From positions 64,001 through 128,000 of the forward strand of contig CAVPBK010000003.1 of NCBI GenBank assembly GCA_963701855.1: DNA of 64,000 nucleotides. The letters are read 5' to 3'. The DNA comes from Nitrospirota bacterium. Its GTDB lineage: Bacteria > Nitrospirota > Nitrospiria > Nitrospirales > Nitrospiraceae. Both the position numbers and the translations under genes were made by a program. Below are positions 55,454 to 62,623 of this stretch, piece by piece. Each line of letters begins with the position of its first letter. Within the stretch, counting starts at the first letter, position 1. The notes beneath the pieces were generated by a model. That model made no database searches, had not been told where the DNA came from, and saw only the letters and a list, made by a program, of their open reading frames with translations.

Positions 55454-55774
55454 ATGAAGGTGGTCAACCTTTCGGACTATCAGCAGTTCAGTAGTGAGAA
55501 GATGAAGAAGAACAATCTGTTTCAGACGCCACGATTCTTCTGCGACATCTACTGCTTCGAACCGGGACAGGAACAGAAGGGCCATATCCACGGTGAGCAG
55601 GATAAGGTCTATCTCGTGCTTGAGGGACAGGGCACCTTTCAAGTCGGCTCAGAAAAACAGGTGCTGGGTCCAGGGCAGGGAACCATGGCGCCGGCCGGGG
55701 AAGAGCACGGCGTGAAGAACCACACAGGCCAGCGTCTGAAAGTCCTTGTGTTCGTGGCGCCGAATCAGATGTGA
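55454..55774 (+). CDS. Cupin-domain protein
   Basis: PGQ...HIH...Y.VLEG.G and P.GE.HGV.N cupin motifs. Confidence 0.9.
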   Translation: MKVVNLSDYQQFSSEKMKKNNLFQTPRFFCDIYCFEPGQEQKGHIHGEQDKVYLVLEGQGTFQVGSEKQVLGPGQGTMAPAGEEHGVKNHTGQRLKVLVFVAPNQM

Positions 55775-55776
55775 GG

Positions 55777-55872
55777 AGGGAGCGGCCAGGTGCCCTTCTT
55801 GCTCGCAGGACGCGCACGGTGAGACGGTGCTCGTCCGATGCGCGCAGTAAAGGGCAGCCTTGGCCACTCCCT
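55777..55872. repeat. Family B intergenic repeat
   Basis: gagcggccaggtgcccttcttgctcgcag...cgatgcgcgcagtaaagggcagccttggccactccct; copies at about 42598, 57390 and (inverted, partial) 61984. Confidence 0.75.
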
Positions 55873-56196
55873 CCAGGAGAAGCATTAGAAATCGGGAGAC
55901 CCTCACCTGGGGAGATGGGAACCCGATCTGTCAACGACGCGCCAGTTCTGCTTGTCGCTCTTGTCCATGTGGGTTGCCCGTCCGGCCAACAAAGTTGACC
56001 AGATAGCCCCCCTCGTACTTCATAGTCCATGGCCGCTTTCGTATGAAGCTCTGGGCAGCAGCTCCTTATCGCAGCGTTTGACATGCTATCTCCACGCGAA
56101 ATGCTTCCATTTCCGTTTTCCGTTCGTTGATTTTATAGAATGAACAGGGTATCTACTTTCAGCTTTGTGGTGGAGTGAGCATCGTGGAGGAGAAGC

Positions 56197-56700
56197 ATGA
56201 GCGATCTGGTGCCTCGTGAACGGATTGAGCAGACGATCTTCGTCATTCGTGGTCATCGAGTCATGCTGAGCACAGACCTTGCCGATCTCTATGCAGTTGA
56301 GCCGCGTGTGCTTGTCCAGGCTGTGAAACGTAACAGGACCCGATTTCCAGCCGACTTCATGTTTCAATTGACGGAGCAGGAGTTCAACCATTTGAAATCA
56401 CAAATTGTGATTTCAAGTTGGGGCGGCCTCCGAAGAGCCTATCCTTATGCCTTTACCGAACAGGGCGTTGCAATGTTATCCAGCGTGTTGCGAAGCAAGC
56501 GCGCCATTGAGGTGAACATCGCCATTATGCGTACCTTTGTCCGCTTGCGCGAGATGATCAGTTCGAGCAAAGTCCTTGCCCGGCGCCTCACAGATCTGGA
56601 GAAGAAGTATGATGGCCAGTTTCAAGTCGTCTTTGAGGCCATTCGTGAATTGATGGCGGAGCCCACGCCAAAATCCCGCCGCATCGGATTCAAGACTTGA
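56197..56700 (+). CDS. ORF6N-domain DNA-binding protein
   Basis: [14 protein letters not shown]....[49 protein letters not shown]. Confidence 0.93.
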
Positions 56701-56912
56701 GGGAACAGGAGAGGGCAGGCTGGACGGTCTCCTGTGCTCGTGCAACGCGTCCGGGTTCGTCTGTCTGGTTGGCTGGTCTTTCTGGTCTGGCTAGTTCTTC
56801 TGAATGAATTTCCAGTCCGATCAACCAAACAAACCAGATAGACGAGATAGACTAAATGAACAAGCATTCGTTGGACACGCGCAGTGGGTGACCATCTAGC
56901 CAGCCCTCAAGG
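56701..56912. repeat. Composite repeat (family D shell with family C ladder) after ORF6N copy 1
   Basis: ggtctcctgtgctcgtgcaacgcg...cgttggacacgcgcagtggg..accatctagccagccctcaaggg repeated at 57304-57541 and inverted at about 61825-61958. Confidence 0.75.
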
Positions 56913-56935
56913 GGAAAGGTGGCCGCTCTTGGCTT

Positions 56936-57303
56936 CGCTTCCCTTTAGATTTCATGTTTCAGCTGACATCAAAAGAGAAAGTCGAGGTGGTCGCAAATTG
57001 CGACCACCTCGCAACGCTCAAGTTTTCGCCTGCAAAGCCATTTGCCTTTACCGAACACGGCGCGGTGATGGTGGCGAGTGTGCTCAATTCGAAGAGGGCG
57101 ATCGAGGTCAGCGTTTATGTAGTCCGGGCGTTTGTGAAAGTGCGTGAGGTGCTTGGGGCCCCAGCGAGCTCGCACAGAAACTGACCGAGTTGGAGCGAAG
57201 GGTCGAATCACATGACACCCACATTCGTTCCTTGTTCGATGCCATCCGTCAACTGATGGAGCCATCGGCGACCAAATCACGCCGCATCGGATTCAAGACA
57301 TGA
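56936..57303 (+). pseudogene. 5'-truncated, frameshifted second ORF6N gene
   Basis: RFPLDFMFQLT...PFAFTEHGAVMVASVLNSKRAIEVSVYVVRAFV, frameshift near 57160, then ELAQKL.ELE...FDAIRQLM...SRRIGFKT*. Confidence 0.88.
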
Positions 57304-57541
57304 GGGAACAGGTGCGGGCAGGCTAGACAGGTCTCCTGTGCTCGTGCAACGCGCGGCCTGAGAAGGATGAGAGGGAGCAGGCAACCATCCTTCTTGCTCG
57401 CAGAGCCCCCACGATAAAACTGTGGTCGCTCGATGCGCGCAGTGAAGGACAGTTCGCCTACTCCCTCTAGAGAAGGTGAAGAATCAGAAGGCCCTCGTTG
57501 GACACGCGCAGTGGGTAACCATCTAGCCAGCCCTCAAGGGA
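57304..57541. repeat. Composite repeat (family D shell with nested family B)
   Basis: Same ends as 56701-56912 but the interior carries ttcttgctcgcagagcccccacgat...cgatgcgcgcag. Confidence 0.75.
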
Positions 57542-57736
57542 GAGGGCTGGGACCGGCGCGGTGTGGGAGTGGCTGGCCGCTCTCATGCGACCGTGAGGGG
57601 CAAATTTAAGAAACGACCTCAGTAGCTTCCATCTGAAAATTCAGAATGTCCCAGTTTTCTCTGCCACCCAGGCGAGTTCGAGCTTAGTTAGGTTGTGGTT
57701 GCCCATATTTAGGAAGCTGGCTAAAAATTTGCGCGG

Positions 57737-60336
57737 CTACTTTTTTCTCCTATCTTTGACCATTTTCACAACCCCTCTCACATCTGCGATATCAATACCC
57801 AATTGCTTGGCATCAGGGACCGGGTCATTTTTTACTGAGGAAGGATCATGGGAGTCTATTACCTCACAACACGCTTTATGAATTCTTTCGATTTCTTTGA
57901 ACTCAGATTCTGTGAAACCCACCACGACATTAAGACGATCAATACTGATCCTGTCTCGATAGCGGTGTAGCACCCCATTGAACACGACGTCCTGGATGAT
58001 GCGTTCGATTGTGGCACGTAAGAGACTATATTGCCTTTGAATTTTTGTACGGTCTTCTTCGTTTGGATGGGCTGGCCAGATTTTTTCTAACCTTTTCTGC
58101 TCTTCATCTAGCTTGTTCAATCGGTCCTTGTAGTCCATGTGTGCCCAAGGAAGCCCTTCAATAACATGACCAGGGTGATCATTCATCCATTCGAGGTGGT
58201 GCATAAGGTAACCAATGCTCTGTTGCTCGATTGCGTCGATCAATTCGCAGAGAAATACCGTTTCATGCGTTAGCACAATTACCTGTCGATTTTTAGCTTC
58301 CTCGATAAGGCGACGTGCAACTCTCTTGCGTCGGTGATGATCAAGTGACGAAACAGGATCGTCGAATACAATCCCTCCTCCGTTCCCTGCCAAATGTAAT
58401 TCCGCCATGAACGAACCAATGGCGATTGCCCGCTGTTCGCCTTCGCTTAGAATCTCTTCCAGTTTCGTAGAAACGGGAAGGTCTAACACAAGCTTGTGCT
58501 TCATTTTCCCTTTTTCAACGCGTTCGACGAGCTTGGTCTTGATGTGCCCTATCCCCAAGGACTGAAATTCCTTATCTAATGCACTCTTTAGCGCCGCCGT
58601 TACAGCTTGGCTTGCGAACTCCTTCGCCTTATCCGAGATCGATTTTGTTTTGAGATCATCCTTGCATTTGGTCAACTTAGCTTTCGTCCGCATTCTACCG
58701 ATGAGATCCAAAACACTTTTCAGTCGAGGAGCTAGCTTGGCTCTTGCGCTCAGCTGTGCTCGTTCAGTTTCAAAGGGTTTCCTTTTGGTCTCATCGCCCG
58801 CCTTTTCTAGATCGTCCGCTTGGGCCAAAAGAGTCGTAGAAATGGTATTCAATCCTGGACATGGATCATCATTGAGGGTTGGGGGGCATTCCAATTGTGG
58901 CTTTTCAGAGTAGCCAACATCCACTTTCTTCTCGCCTCAATTCTCTTCTCGTACTCCTGAGTTGTCTGAAGGAGACTGGGGTCCAACTGTTTGAGTTCTT
59001 CAATCGAGGCTTCGTCTAGCCCGAAGCCGAGAGATGCATGTGTGATTGCCTTTTCCGCAACGGCAAGCTGTTCGCGTTTTTCTGCAACTACCTTGGAGGT
59101 ATCGGCTTTAATGAATTCCTCGAAGCGCTTCATGCGATTTACTGCATCCGAGTCCAGTAATTGCTGACATAGCAAGCACCTTGCATCCGCACATACGTGG
59201 GGGAACGGCTCGCCAGGGTAAGCTAGTTCGGTTGAAAATCGACGGGCTGTCTCGAAAAGCGTTTTCCATGCCTCTTCACCAGTCCCTGAAAGTAAAGACT
59301 CACCAGCTTGAAAAGATTTAGCCGCAACTGCTTCGGCCTTTAGTGCCAGTTCAGTTTTGTCATCATAGGACTTCAGGCTTGTGACAGCAGCTTCATTAAC
59401 ACAAGACAGAGCTGCCTCGATTCGACCAATAAGGGCATCGAGTCGTTTTGCCCCAAGCTTAATGGCTTTGGCCTTGGCCGTTGGATCGCTCTCATTCAAA
59501 GATTTGTCAAGCTCAGCAAGCCTCTGTATTTCGTTTGCAGTGAGTGTCGCAAGTGCGGCGACCACTTCAGGCTTCGTTACTTCGCTGAGGGAGGATATTA
59601 GCTTTCCAACGGTGGTGTCGCCTTGGAGATCAATAAATGGGCTAATGTCTGTGTCTGTTGAATTGATCTCCGCATTTAATCTCTGTGTTAGTTCGGGCAT
59701 TACTCGCTGGCCAAGATTTTCGACGATGTCGAGACCGTAAGGGAGATAGGCAACGTCTTGCTCATCTAAGTAAGCACGTGCGCACCGCCCATCAAATACC
59801 GCTATACTGGAAAGCTCGTCTGGAGAAGGAGAGTCGTGTTTCCAGTTGAGCGACTCCGGCTTTCCCCCTACCGTAATGTCGAAAACTGCTTCTGGAATTT
59901 TCCCTGATACTTGCGGATCACTGGCATCAGTATGAACGGTCTCAGAAACATCGCGGGCACGGCAAGCACGCTTTAGTACCCGAGAATACCCTGATTTACC
60001 AGAGCCATTGTCGCCATAGATGATCGTTATTCCCTTTTCCGTAAAGACAAGTTTTTGTCCATCCGCAATTCGGTTGACATGTTTAAGATCTTTCATCGCT
60101 ACTAGTATTACGGTTTCGCCAGAAGAGGAAAGCGTAGGGAGATGGTTTTGCGCAAGCGGAACAGGCTGACGATTCTGAGCATCCGACAGTCCGCGGGCCG
60201 ACTTCAGCATCGCATATAAATCATCGATGTCTTGTGCACTAAGTTTCTGTTGCTGAAAAAGACGGCGCAGGGCATCGCGCTGCCAGGGACTTAGATAAGC
60301 GGTTGACCAAGCGAGAATGTCTGTCAGGAGCGACAT
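57737..60336 (-). CDS. Rad50/RloC-like ABC ATPase with coiled coil and Zn hook (~866 aa if repaired); 1-nt frameshift at a C6 run near 58885
   Basis: Walker A GDNGSGKS, CLLCQQ hook, LSEGE signature, FDDPVSSLD Walker B/D-loop, LTH; ORFs 58849-60336 and 57737-58924. Confidence 0.88.
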
Positions 60337-60376
60337 GTGTACCCTCGGTTCCTTATTTAAGAATCAAGGAGCCATT

Positions 60377-61663
60377 TCACCTAGTTGAATCGTTGTCCGC
60401 AGTGGATGGGGGATTCAATGCTCGCAATTCAAGCCCTTCGATTTCCTGTATCGTCTTTCCCGCAATGCCTTGAAGATCCCCATACATGCCAGCGGTTGCT
60501 TGCATGACCCGCTCGATTTGTTCTTCCCGTTTGGCCCACTGCTTAATAATGGCCTTCTTCTCCTTGTCGAGATCCTCCTGCATCGAGGAGAATGCCTCGA
60601 CGATCGCTTCCACTCGATGGCGAAAGCGTGGGCCGGTGAGGTACTGATAGACCATTTCGGTCTTGGTCTGCTGCCCTTCCAACGCCTGCCGAGCTGAGGC
60701 AACTTCGATTAGGGAGTGGCGCAATGCGACCGCGACGGAGAGCATTGACCGTGAGTGTGTAACCCAGACTCCTTCGATGAGATCAAACGACTCCATGCCT
60801 TTTGGGAGTGTCTGACTGACGATAACAGCAATTTCTGCCTTGGCAGTCCGCTGATCGTCGCGTAGTTTGACTAGCCAGCCGTCGCTCCAGTTCTTGGTTC
60901 GCTTGGACTCCCATAAGATCGTTCCACAGGGATGACCGAGCGGGCCTATGACCCGCTGTAGTGCATCGCCACCGTATTCGCCTTTGGGAACAGGCTCGAT
61001 GGTGTCCCTTGGGAACTTTATCCTGAGTAAGGCTTCCAGTTCTAGTTCCTGGACTTCACCTTGGAGTTGCTGTGATCCCTGTTCAGCCCTGCGCTTGAGT
61101 TCTTCGATCTGGGTCTGCATGGAGGCGATGGTTTGTTCCTTCTCCATCACCTTGAGTTTGAGTCCTTCCTCGGCCTCTTTCTTGGCCTGCTCGCGGGTGG
61201 CAGAGAGCCCCTCTTGAACTCGGTTTTCGACCGTGAGTTCTAGCTCCCGTTTGGCATCGTCCAGTTCCCGCTTTTGCCGGATGAGATCAGCCTGTGCTTT
61301 TTGAGCCTCGGCGAGTTTGACTTCGCGTTGATTGAGGACATCCTGAAGTTCAGCCAGTTCTCTTGTTTTCTGGTCAATATCCGTTTGCAGAGCGAGTTTG
61401 GCCTTCTTCGATTCCTCTGTGGCAATCTTCGCGCGCTCCAGCAGCAGCTTCTCGGCCACCTGATCGTCAATCGCTTGCGTAGCTTTTGAGACAGCGGCTT
61501 CTCGATCACGCAAAGACTCTTCTTTCTTGGCAATGTCCGTGTCTTTCTGCGCCAGCCGCTTCTCGTAGTCGCGGCGGGTTGACTCGATTAATGGAGCGGC
61601 GAGAGATTCTGTCAGCTTGATCTCGGTCTTGCAGTTCTGGCAGATAATTGTGGGCTCTGACAT
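60377..61663 (-). CDS. DUF2130 family coiled-coil protein with C-terminal PD-(D/E)xK-like region
   Basis: I.C.NC..EI.L N-terminus, QGSQQLQGEVQE, GGD...ILWESKRTKNW. Confidence 0.88.
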   Translation of the reverse strand: MSEPTIICQNCKTEIKLTESLAAPLIESTRRDYEKRLAQKDTDIAKKEESLRDREAAVSKATQAIDDQVAEKLLLERAKIATEESKKAKLALQTDIDQKTRELAELQDVLNQREVKLAEAQKAQADLIRQKRELDDAKRELELTVENRVQEGLSATREQAKKEAEEGLKLKVMEKEQTIASMQTQIEELKRRAEQGSQQLQGEVQELELEALLRIKFPRDTIEPVPKGEYGGDALQRVIGPLGHPCGTILWESKRTKNWSDGWLVKLRDDQRTAKAEIAVIVSQTLPKGMESFDLIEGVWVTHSRSMLSVAVALRHSLIEVASARQALEGQQTKTEMVYQYLTGPRFRHRVEAIVEAFSSMQEDLDKEKKAIIKQWAKREEQIERVMQATAGMYGDLQGIAGKTIQEIEGLELRALNPPSTADNDSTR

Positions 61664-61824
61664 AGAAAAGTCCCGGTAAGACAGGTGTATCTTTTGGCTG
61701 AAGTCCTACGCTCAACGGGTAGATAAATCAACCGTACAGAAGGGGGTAGCGGGGTCAGGAAGGCTAAATGTTCCCCCTCCAAGCTCGCTCGTTACCTCCC
61801 AGGGATGATGCCTGATTGATCCTT

Positions 61825-62012
61825 CCCTGCGCGCGTTCAACGAATGCTGGTTCATCTGGTCTATCTCGTCTATCTGGTTTGTCTGGTTGATCAGACTGGA
61901 AATTCACCCAGAAGAACCAGATAGAAGTGCACGAGCACGTTGCGCGAGCACAGAAGATCATCAGGCTCCATCCCTCCTCTGTTCTGCGAGCAAGGAGGGC
62001 ACCTGGCCGCTT
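61825..62012. repeat. Inverted composite repeat (families D, C, partial B)
   Basis: Reverse complements of gcattcgttgaacgcgcgcag, the tatctcgtctatctggtttgtctgg ladder, tcttctgtgctcgcgcaacg and ccttgctcgcag. Confidence 0.7.
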
Positions 62013-62077
62013 CCCGCCATTGCATGACCTTGCACCTTGGTTCTCCAAGTCGCAAATGTGTTCTGAAGGCCCTGGAG

Positions 62078-62116
62078 ACCATGTTTGAGGTCACAATTTG
62101 CGACCTCAAACATGGT
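62078..62116. other. Stand-alone 39-bp palindrome related to the ORF6N internal palindromes
   Basis: accatgtttgaggtcacaa-t-ttgcgacctcaaacatggt, 19-bp arms with one mismatch. Confidence 0.85.
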
Positions 62117-62183
62117 GCTCAGTTGGCTGCGAGAATGTATCTTACGGCGTTCTTTAGAAGATTGGTGACGAGACGTAACGCTG

Positions 62184-62623
62184 TTAAGCCACTGGCTCTC
62201 GTTTCGGGACTATTCGGCCTTCTTCTAAATCTTGGAGGTCAGACCAAGCGGTGAGGTCGGTTCGAGAGGGATCGACGGCGTCGCGGAGTTTGTTGAAATA
62301 CTTCTGCTTATCCGGCGTGCTTGGTCCCCGCGTCAACATCATCTCATTCCACTCGTTTTGTTCTACCTGCGGTGAGGCGTTGCGGCCTTCTTGAACCATT
62401 GGGCCACGCCCTCATCAGTGGGATTGGCCTTCACGGTCTCGGTGAATTCCTTGTCCGTAATACCGGAGAATTTCATGAGCCGGTCATCCATGGGGCAGGG
62501 GTAGATGTATTCGCCTTCGGTCTTGGCCAGCACGGCGCGGCACTTGTCGATCATGCGCGCGAGATGGACATAGCCTTCCATCTTCACGCGCATGCTGCGA
62601 GGGAAACTCTTCCTCAGATCCAT
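62184..62623 (-). CDS. DUF5069-like protein, split by a single frameshift near 62370
   Basis: PRS....GYVHLARMIDKCRA...GEY.Y.CPMD in 62363-62623; C-terminus W.DL.DLEEGR in 62184-62399. Confidence 0.8.

Follow-up and report, generated by a model that had tools for sequence, protein, structure and literature searches.

We report that ORF6N genes carry, in the middle of the coding sequence, a palindrome that is conserved beyond what the code demands, that is independent of the reading frame, and whose inner bases are tied to two residues on the predicted recognition helix of the encoded protein. The analysis concerns a 64,000-nucleotide (nt) stretch of DNA, hereafter the window, from a Nitrospirota bacterium (GenBank assembly GCA_963701855.1, contig CAVPBK010000003.1, positions 64,001 to 128,000 of the forward strand), in which two ORF6N copies carry the palindrome in different frames. 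From sequence comparison we consider that the palindrome is probably an operator lying within the coding sequence, the cognate double-stranded DNA site for the gene's own ORF6N protein.

Copy 1 (56197-56700, + strand) is an intact gene for a protein of 167 amino acids (aa). It matches the Pfam ORF6N model (PF10543, E 1.7e-32; 112 bits over model positions 2-86, with a curated cut-off of 27.8 bits), the PADLOC profiles for PDC-S05 (PDLC04856, E 2.5e-54; PDLC04869, E 7.1e-53; PDLC04849, E 1.7e-35) and a PHROG family named 'anti-repressor'. Palindrome 1 (56392-56416) is perfect, with arms and centre of 12-1-12 (TTGAAATCACAA-A-TTGTGATTTCAA, half-site TTGAAATCACAA), and occupies codons 66-73 (LKSQIVIS). 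Palindrome 2 (56983-57011), likewise perfect and of the form 14-1-14 (CGAGGTGGTCGCAA-A-TTGCGACCACCTCG), is read EVVANCDHL and has the middle base of a codon at its centre; it lies in copy 2 (56924-57303, + strand). Both had been noticed in the initial annotation and were confirmed in the sequence and with a repeat finder. They lie between the peptide motifs FMFQLT and P(Y/F)AFTE, which are 23 codons apart in either copy. Counted from base 1 of the Thr codon, the distance to the centre is 33 nt for palindrome 1 (centre 56404) and 31 nt for palindrome 2 (centre 56997); because of this 2-nt offset the two copies share the core TCRCAAATTGYGA but read it in different frames, as had been proposed.

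Copy 2 had been described as a second gene but is instead a 5'-truncated, frameshifted remnant of a gene of the VxNCDHL subfamily. It scores 28.1 bits with the Pfam model, over positions 44-86 only, and 39.5 bits in our ORF6N search of the genome, in which copy 1 scored 113.3 bits. The profile matches positions 45-122 at 56924-57160 and then 125-165 at 57166-57297; the first 44 profile positions, including the recognition helix, are gone and a frameshift lies between 57160 and 57166. Full-length relatives of copy 2 in other genomes are 60-86% identical to it. A third palindrome, to which the initial annotation had alluded, was located at 62081-62113: it is 33 nt long, has the form 16-1-16 with one mismatch (A.C on the + strand), and is an orphan within a decayed stretch in which the Pfam model found no ORF6N match.

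ORF6N genes were collected from 400 other genomes of the phylum (30 loci and 60 regions), a scan of 185,579 species genomes (80 loci, many phyla), viral contigs (80 loci) and a search with the copy 2 peptide (30 loci). The sampled genes are mostly better-scoring members of the family, low-scoring ones having been sampled at 10 genomes. Perfect arms of at least 9 were present in 65 of the first 117 distinct genes, the longest palindrome being 17-1-17, and 166 of 196 genes had at most one mismatch in ten arm positions at the site. With respect to perfect arm length, 63 of 114 genes exceeded all of 500 synonymous recodings, and for palindromes 1 and 2 of the window 0/500 recodings attained the observed length. 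Pairing was also scored by setting the centre from the peptide motif alone and counting the Watson-Crick pairs over positions 2-13. By this measure at least 11 of the 12 positions were paired in 153 of 201 distinct coding intervals from many phyla; the mean was 10.97, compared with 1.2-3.4 when the centre was slid and 4.89 after synonymous recoding. For 194 of 200 intervals the observed pairing was attained by no more than 3 of 300 synonymous recodings. Over 148 sites aligned without gaps, 87.2% of the cells were paired (67.1% in shuffles, 26-43% in slid controls), and changes on both sides of a pair numbered 402 cells versus 121 in shuffles, with 0/500 shuffles as high. The excess over recoded controls and the covariation of the arms, two checks put forward in the initial annotation, thus both speak for a family-wide palindrome that the genetic code does not account for. 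The loop of a single gene can hold two or three palindrome copies (L003, L095, L107).

A further regularity links the palindrome to the protein. In a set of 195 genes with a single site each (numbering as in copy 1), the residue aligned to Q41 predicts k4, the base four positions from the centre: Q goes with A (109/113), E with G (34/34), R with C (30/33) and K with C (15/15; R and K together 45/48). The residue aligned to R37 predicts base k7, where K goes with G (88/88), R with A (52/60) and S with A (17/17). Mutual-information z-scores were 57 and 33 for the k4 and k7 rules, respectively. Columns 33 and 37, beside the column of position 41, reached 28.5 and 26.3 on the k4/k5 core, while among the 101 columns outside the helix the top value was 10.6 (column 20, on k7/k8) and all others were at or below 7.4. 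The two rules are largely independent, with weak cross terms, and every combination of residues occurs with matching DNA. These pairings agree with the well-established preferred contacts between side chains and bases, Gln with adenine, Arg or Lys with guanine and Glu with cytosine, the guanine and the cytosine being on the other strand here.

The association was also counted in phylogenetically independent pairs, using a tree of 77 columns from which those of the helix rule and the palindrome segment had been left out. The counts are small; the pairs changed in the same way for Q~A in 6.3/7, K~G in 6.0/7, E~G in 3.4/4 and R/K~C in 4.0/4, with 0 in the opposite way. Of the five control columns, the three listed had 0.3-0.6 in the same way and 0.6-0.7 in the opposite way, i.e. 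no trend. The rule also describes this genome: the R..Q helix of copy 1 predicts AATCA, which palindrome 1 carries, and an ORF6N gene on contig C1 with a K..Q helix has GGTCA in both its palindromes. Palindrome 2 has the half-site GGTCG, the kind found with a K..E helix, a helix that the remnant copy 2 lacks. Taken together, the inner bases of the palindrome follow two residues of what is predicted to be the recognition helix.

Full-length genes of the copy 2 type exist and form a genuine subfamily. In the main subfamily the palindrome is centred on the first base of a codon; in the VxNCDHL subfamily it is centred on the second base in 15/15 genes, 13 of which have perfect arms of at least 10, so that two subfamilies hold one palindrome in different frames, which answers the question of frame distribution raised in the initial annotation. 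The helix-base rule applies to the VxNCDHL genes as well (12/12 and 11/12) despite their different local codons. Moreover, AACTTATCACAATTTGTGATAAGTT is read ELITICDKL in one viral gene, and the identical letters are read NLSQFVISS in two other genes. Pseudogene L413 illustrates how a frameshift upstream of the site yields the other reading. The palindrome is independent of the reading frame, and the pair of copies in the window adds the second frame as a natural control.

In the AlphaFold2 model of copy 1, helices 25-32 and 36-45 form a helix-turn-helix. The predicted recognition helix comprises codons 36-45 (56302-56331, + strand), as indicated by the model together with the helix-base tables. 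The two rule residues, R37 (codon 56305-56307) and Q41 (codon 56317-56319), are four positions, that is one turn, apart on it. Palindrome 1 codes for the passage from helix 60-69 into loop 70-83, the only low-confidence loop of the model, and this position fits a segment whose peptide matters little. A homodimer prediction from the alignment of ORF6N proteins scored 0.32 (mark 0.42). The aligned proteins end in a short conserved tail motif, basic residues and then I-G-F (RRIGFKT in copy 1). Pfam assigns copy 1 to ORF6N, not KilA-N; the two domains are described as related. A protein search of a phage collection gave five matching records, all unannotated.

In the 4.3-Mb genome the core TCRCAAATTGYGA occurs twice, in the two window palindromes, and with the centre base relaxed (TCRCAANTTGYGA) four times. 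A looser scan for TCRCA-N3-TGYGA adds the second, 3-nt-centred palindrome of the C1 gene, giving five family sites in total, all of them in ORF6N genes or relics. The other two ORF6N genes of the genome are this C1 gene, with its two palindromes, and a gene on contig C15 with a weaker 7-1-7 palindrome. Perfect palindromes with arms of at least 11 and a loop of at most 3 number 55 in the genome; a single AT run accounts for five of them, and four are in ORF6N genes. The sites do not fit a dispersed palindromic repeat of the REP, RPE or MITE-like kind, there being only five in 4.3 Mb, all ORF6N-associated.

Palindromes of the same type also occur outside the coding sequence. Among 249 ORF6N genes, 45 distinct copies were found within 300 nt upstream, mostly 25-60 nt before the start codon; T is at pair 6 in 43/45, and C-A at pairs 3 and 2 was required by the filter. 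In some cases (L250, L005, L033, L059) the copy is visibly what remains of an older ORF6N fragment whose end is the palindrome. There are also arrays, one of seven palindromes with a spacing of about 54 nt upstream of an ORF6N gene (L028, positions 1100-1460) and one of five, spaced by about 31 nt, that is intergenic and flanks two tandem ORF6N genes (L018). Within both arrays the copies differ from each other in the inner bases. The upstream copies may thus be remnants, or else may serve sister proteins as sites. A promoter-proximal autoregulatory operator is not supported: no further palindrome copy lies in the upstream region of copy 1, and elsewhere 5/45 upstream copies are cognate at both positions.

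The 17-nt core GGTCRCAAWTTGYGACC was further searched for in viral contigs, where at least 119 stretches match, a number that may be no more than chance would give. Of 80 such loci examined, 6 have the site inside an ORF6N gene, 6 upstream of one and 68 in unrelated contexts. The latter comprise 62 distinct contexts, of which 46 are intergenic (several with a T run behind the site) and 13 inside other genes. At these viral loci (L285-L364) the core appears as an intergenic hairpin in unrelated phage contigs, often with runs of A and T on its flanks in the manner of a terminator. Some core-bearing phage contigs carry T4-like gp23 or gp32 genes, and core sites also lie inside genes for ribonucleotide reductase and PD-(D/E)XK nuclease.

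How might a palindrome inside a gene come to follow the protein which that gene encodes? We infer physical binding, in which the ORF6N protein, with its helix-turn-helix and long helical tail, would act on the site as a symmetric oligomer so that each recognition helix reads one half-site; residue 41 would read base pair 4 from the centre and residue 37, one turn away, pair 7. A change in the helix would then be followed by changes in both half-sites, which would appear as 'compensatory' arm changes and would drag the loop peptide along (SQIV, SQFA, FQFG, CQFG). The loop would tolerate such changes and even a local change of frame (VxNCDHL), which may be how the two copies of the window keep the core in two frames. 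The most likely use would be that the protein limits its own dose through a roadblock carried along with its gene: a solitary gene that moves horizontally lands behind foreign promoters, and an operator inside the gene would keep dose control there. Of the options listed in the initial annotation, the data support the first, an intragenic operator to which the ORF6N protein itself would bind.

Several observations weigh against this interpretation. In 38 of the 114 genes the perfect arm length is not better than in recoded controls, and the genes are interrelated and mostly better-scoring, so that raw counts overstate independence. Pairing extends to 13-17 base pairs (bp) per arm, which exceeds the reach of one helix, and something else must therefore keep the outer arms symmetric. 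A Foldseek search of the AlphaFold2 model against the PDB gave no hit at E ≤0.001, only weak winged-helix likenesses (Ski/Dachshund, MarR; best E 0.39). When the upstream copies were compared with the helix of the adjacent gene, k4 agreed in 18/45, k7 in 19/45 and both in 5/45; being non-cognate, they do not support a simple operator in the gene's own leader. Finally, only 12 of the 80 viral core loci are ORF6N-linked, and in a very large collection the core alone is thus not diagnostic.

The main alternative concerns the purpose rather than the binding, which would be the same. The ORF6N protein could be an anti-phage effector acting on replicating DNA, and a cognate site on its carrier would switch it off or mark the carrier as 'self'. 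We regard this as possible, though clearly less probable than an operator for dose control. The model is BstA, a protein with a KilA-N-like DNA-binding domain for which a cognate DNA element, aba, overlaps its own gene and switches BstA off on the carrier phage, as set out in the available part of the report (PMC8585504). The initial annotation had known of no described mechanism for in-gene palindromes of this kind; BstA and aba are a described relative (PMC8585504, available part). The same part of that work describes BstA variants each with its own DNA element overlapping the bstA coding sequence (PMC8585504), and the variety of helix and site pairs in ORF6N is as expected if cognate specificity were needed. 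Copy 1 matches the PADLOC candidate PDC-S05, one representative of which reduced plating of T7 and T5 about 1000-fold, according to the accessible text of a preprint (10.1101/2024.09.26.614923). That tested protein is, in the same text, described with a RhuM domain and may therefore not be the same protein. Some neighbours of ORF6N genes are defence genes (type I restriction-modification (R-M), GmrSD, PDC-S06). On the other hand, many ORF6N genes are single genes among chromosomal housekeeping genes (purH-purD, carA-carB, nuoM-nuoN) and not in replicating prophages. Moreover, aba is, within the part of the report at hand, effective only at high copy number, non-palindromic and located at the start codon (PMC8585504).

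The likeness to BstA and aba is that of a defence-linked protein with a short cognate element within or over its own coding sequence that acts as DNA. In both cases variants form protein/element pairs of matching specificity, which for ORF6N appear matched by sequence statistics. The two differ in form. The aba element, of 63 bp, extends across the start codon, carries direct repeats at its ends and is non-palindromic, going by the available sections (PMC8585504), whereas the ORF6N site is a palindrome of 25-35 bp at codons 66-73, mid-gene in a solitary gene for 167 aa. BstA is larger and prophage-encoded, and its function was demonstrated by experiment, as these sections state (PMC8585504), whereas the ORF6N site is known here from sequence. 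A bolder and more tentative extension is that ORF6N genes are 'lock and key' units, in which one plain residue-to-base code (Gln-A, Glu-G and Arg/Lys-C at pair 4, Lys-G at pair 7) would let the protein and its site diversify jointly. The in-gene cognate site would tag 'self' DNA for a defence protein, as aba does for BstA, and the non-cognate copies in leaders and arrays would serve sister proteins as tags, giving a network in which paralogues recognise each other.

It is improbable that the palindrome is functionless and maintains itself by template switching, in which one arm is copied onto the other and the peptide is dragged along. Such a process would account for pairing that is Watson-Crick only, for perfect arms of up to 17 bp that extend past the reach of one helix, and for palindromes that outlive their gene (copy 2, palindrome 3 and the relics L250, L005 and L033). 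It is also documented, coding sequence included, in the accessible portions of two reports (PMC8794818, PMC8604942). Template switching does not, however, predict that the inner bases track two residues encoded about 75 nt upstream in both frames, nor that the non-coding copies have C-A invariantly at pairs 3 and 2 and T at pair 6, and long perfect palindromes are otherwise rare in the genome. It may nevertheless explain the symmetry of the outer arms.

About equally improbable, or slightly more so, is a function of the folded nucleic acid, either as an mRNA stem-loop (stability, translation control) or as a cruciform or single-stranded DNA hairpin recognised by shape. The predicted hairpins are strong: folded as single-stranded DNA, palindrome 1 has -11.2 kcal/mol (z -5.9) and palindrome 2 -17.2 kcal/mol (z -6.6), with 0/200 shuffles equal, and the fold of 62068-62112, at palindrome 3, has z -4.5 and -4.9. 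At least nine loci have upstream copies in the leader, ending 2-5 nt before the ribosome-binding site; upstream copies lie downstream of the best promoter-like hexamers, at +31 and +41 in the two top-scoring loci, and stems differ among copies within a locus. The sigma-70 hexamer scan of the leaders gave few convincing promoters. However, G.U pairs are not tolerated in the coding copies: at the eleven inner pairs of the 148 coding sites they fill 14 of 1628 cells, compared with 105 cells for other mismatches, fewer than expected from neutral transitions alone. That G.T is treated as a mismatch indicates a constraint on double-stranded DNA and not on an RNA fold. In the non-coding copies G.U shows no clear preference (GT+TG 38 versus AC+CA 26), which is not decisive. 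An Rfam 15 scan of 55500-62600 found no relevant family, with one chance-level match elsewhere in the region (mir-1420, E 3.1). The helix-base rule argues for read-out of sequence, and fixed bases at pairs 2, 3 and 6 are needless for a fold. The proposal in the initial annotation that selection acts on DNA or RNA structure rather than on the peptide therefore holds as far as the nucleic acid is concerned, which is kept through codon choice, covariation and two frames, but not for the fold as such, given the paucity of G.U and the tracking of the two recognition-helix residues. In five metatranscriptome runs at most 0.10 of the sampled words were present, as contigs only. Two further ideas were dropped: Shine-Dalgarno/anti-Shine-Dalgarno pairing (left arm GAGG, right arm CCTC), because about half of the sites, including copy 1, lack GAGG, and a likeness to integron attC sites (AAC...GTT ends), there being no extrahelical bases and no integrase nearby.

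Lesions in broken ORF6N copies cluster at the palindrome. Frameshift or stop junctions fall at profile positions 62-80 in 5/13 cases, an interval that makes up 11% of the length, and four further, low-scoring copies (L405, L406, L407, L414) break off, have a deletion or change frame at the 3' edge of the palindrome. Among the broken copies, which also include L262, L280, L106 and L016, a frameshift, stop, deletion edge or truncation often lies at the palindrome or a few bases from its 3' end. Several independent 5'-truncated copies, including copy 2 of the window, start at profile positions 45-52 (RFPxDFMFQL). The least probable explanation is that the palindrome is a site of recombination or breakage (loop diversification, cassette-like exchange) or a small palindromic element colonising ORF6N genes, both offered as options in the initial annotation: the first gains a little from the clustered lesions, from the relics that end at the palindrome directly before an intact gene (L250, L005, L033) and from the arrays and loops with multiple copies (5-7 in L018 and L028, 2-3 in L003, L095 and L107), but fragility is expected of any palindrome without function, the breakpoints at 45-52 recur away from it, the site has one fixed position in the family and no linked recombinase was found among the neighbours, and the second is not supported, all sites in this genome being confined to ORF6N genes or relics.

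A specific site embedded in the reading frame of its DNA-binding protein is known from parS within spo0J/parB. The ORF6N palindrome is alike in lying inside the reading frame of its putative binder; parS in spo0J/parB is, unlike it, a single system with another fold and purpose, and to our knowledge no family-wide residue-to-base rule or cross-frame retention of the site has been described for that type. Rickettsia palindromic elements are inserted in frame into genes. These and the REP/RAYT repeats (PMC3733652) resemble the ORF6N case in that short palindromes can be translated or flank a small gene, but they are dispersed in many unrelated genes or intergenic regions within a single genome, whereas ORF6N has one fixed site per gene across phyla and only five sites in this genome. 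The controller proteins of R-M systems with their C-boxes and antitoxins such as YefM-YoeB (PMC1802561, available part) share a symmetric site, a dimeric helix-turn-helix and control of their own dose, and are often found in defence or addiction modules. Their operators are at the promoter, outside the coding sequence, whereas in ORF6N the candidate cognate site is mid-gene and the leader copies are non-cognate. Perfect inverted repeats in reading frames, with arms changing together, also occur in mitochondrial genes of Nematomorpha, as the accessible part of that report describes (PMC6649704). In the portions available, the coding palindromes of this and the two template-switching reports (PMC6649704, PMC8794818, PMC8604942) are mutational or unexplained and have no link to an encoded recognition helix. 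Within the accessible parts of the literature on ORF6N, on in-gene palindromes and operators and on KilA-N with a palindrome or hairpin, we found no description of the ORF6N palindrome.

With respect to genomic context, no phage genes were found beside copy 1. Relatives adjoin type I R-M genes, GmrSD, DUF4143 ATPases, an integrase or a transposase at various loci. At six loci from different phyla (L025, L054, L072, L061, L070, L087) solitary ORF6N genes lie between housekeeping genes with spacers of 20-40 nt, the flanking pair being purH-purD in three, carA-carB in one and of the nuoM/N type in two. These operons have room for the ORF6N gene alone, and the tight placement suggests repeated insertion of the bare gene.

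In the window, the 3' flank of copy 1 is duplicated. It contains a 24-nt block directly after the gene (56726-56749, + strand), which is repeated with 100% identity after copy 2 at 57330-57353, in addition to the repeats D1 (56609-56725) and D2 (56855-56913; families D1, D2 and D7). Palindrome 3 adjoins an inverted copy of the block located after copy 1. The ORF6N flanks at 55800-57550 and 61764-62048 are composed of repeated blocks of families D1-D7. With these repeated flanks and the inverted block beside palindrome 3, ORF6N-related sequence brackets a PDC-S06 cargo in inverted orientation. This cargo is a PDC-S06-type AAA_13 ATPase (57737-60336, - strand) split in two frames (58849-60336 and 57737-58924), matched by Pfam AAA_13 and by positions 1-474 (E 1.1e-93) and 477-857 (E 8.2e-92) of the PADLOC profile PDLC04891. 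The two frames, of 495 aa and 395 aa, overlap and jointly span the 858-position profile; this is probably a frameshifted defence gene. Upstream of it lies a gene for a 428-aa coiled-coil protein (60377-61663) without a family match.

For annotation, the palindrome marks dead ORF6N copies and is a local hotspot of frameshifts and truncations. If our interpretation of the palindrome as a cognate operator is correct, the specificity of a widespread DNA-binding family would be readable from genome sequence, and the family, with one matched protein/site pair from every gene, would provide a natural data set for the recognition codes of this fold. An operator kept in a reading frame would dictate the local peptide and survive a change of frame, which would be a clean case of selection at the level of DNA overriding selection at the level of protein. 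Finally, the cognate site would make the mechanism of the candidate anti-phage family PDC-S05 testable with respect to dose control versus self-marking.

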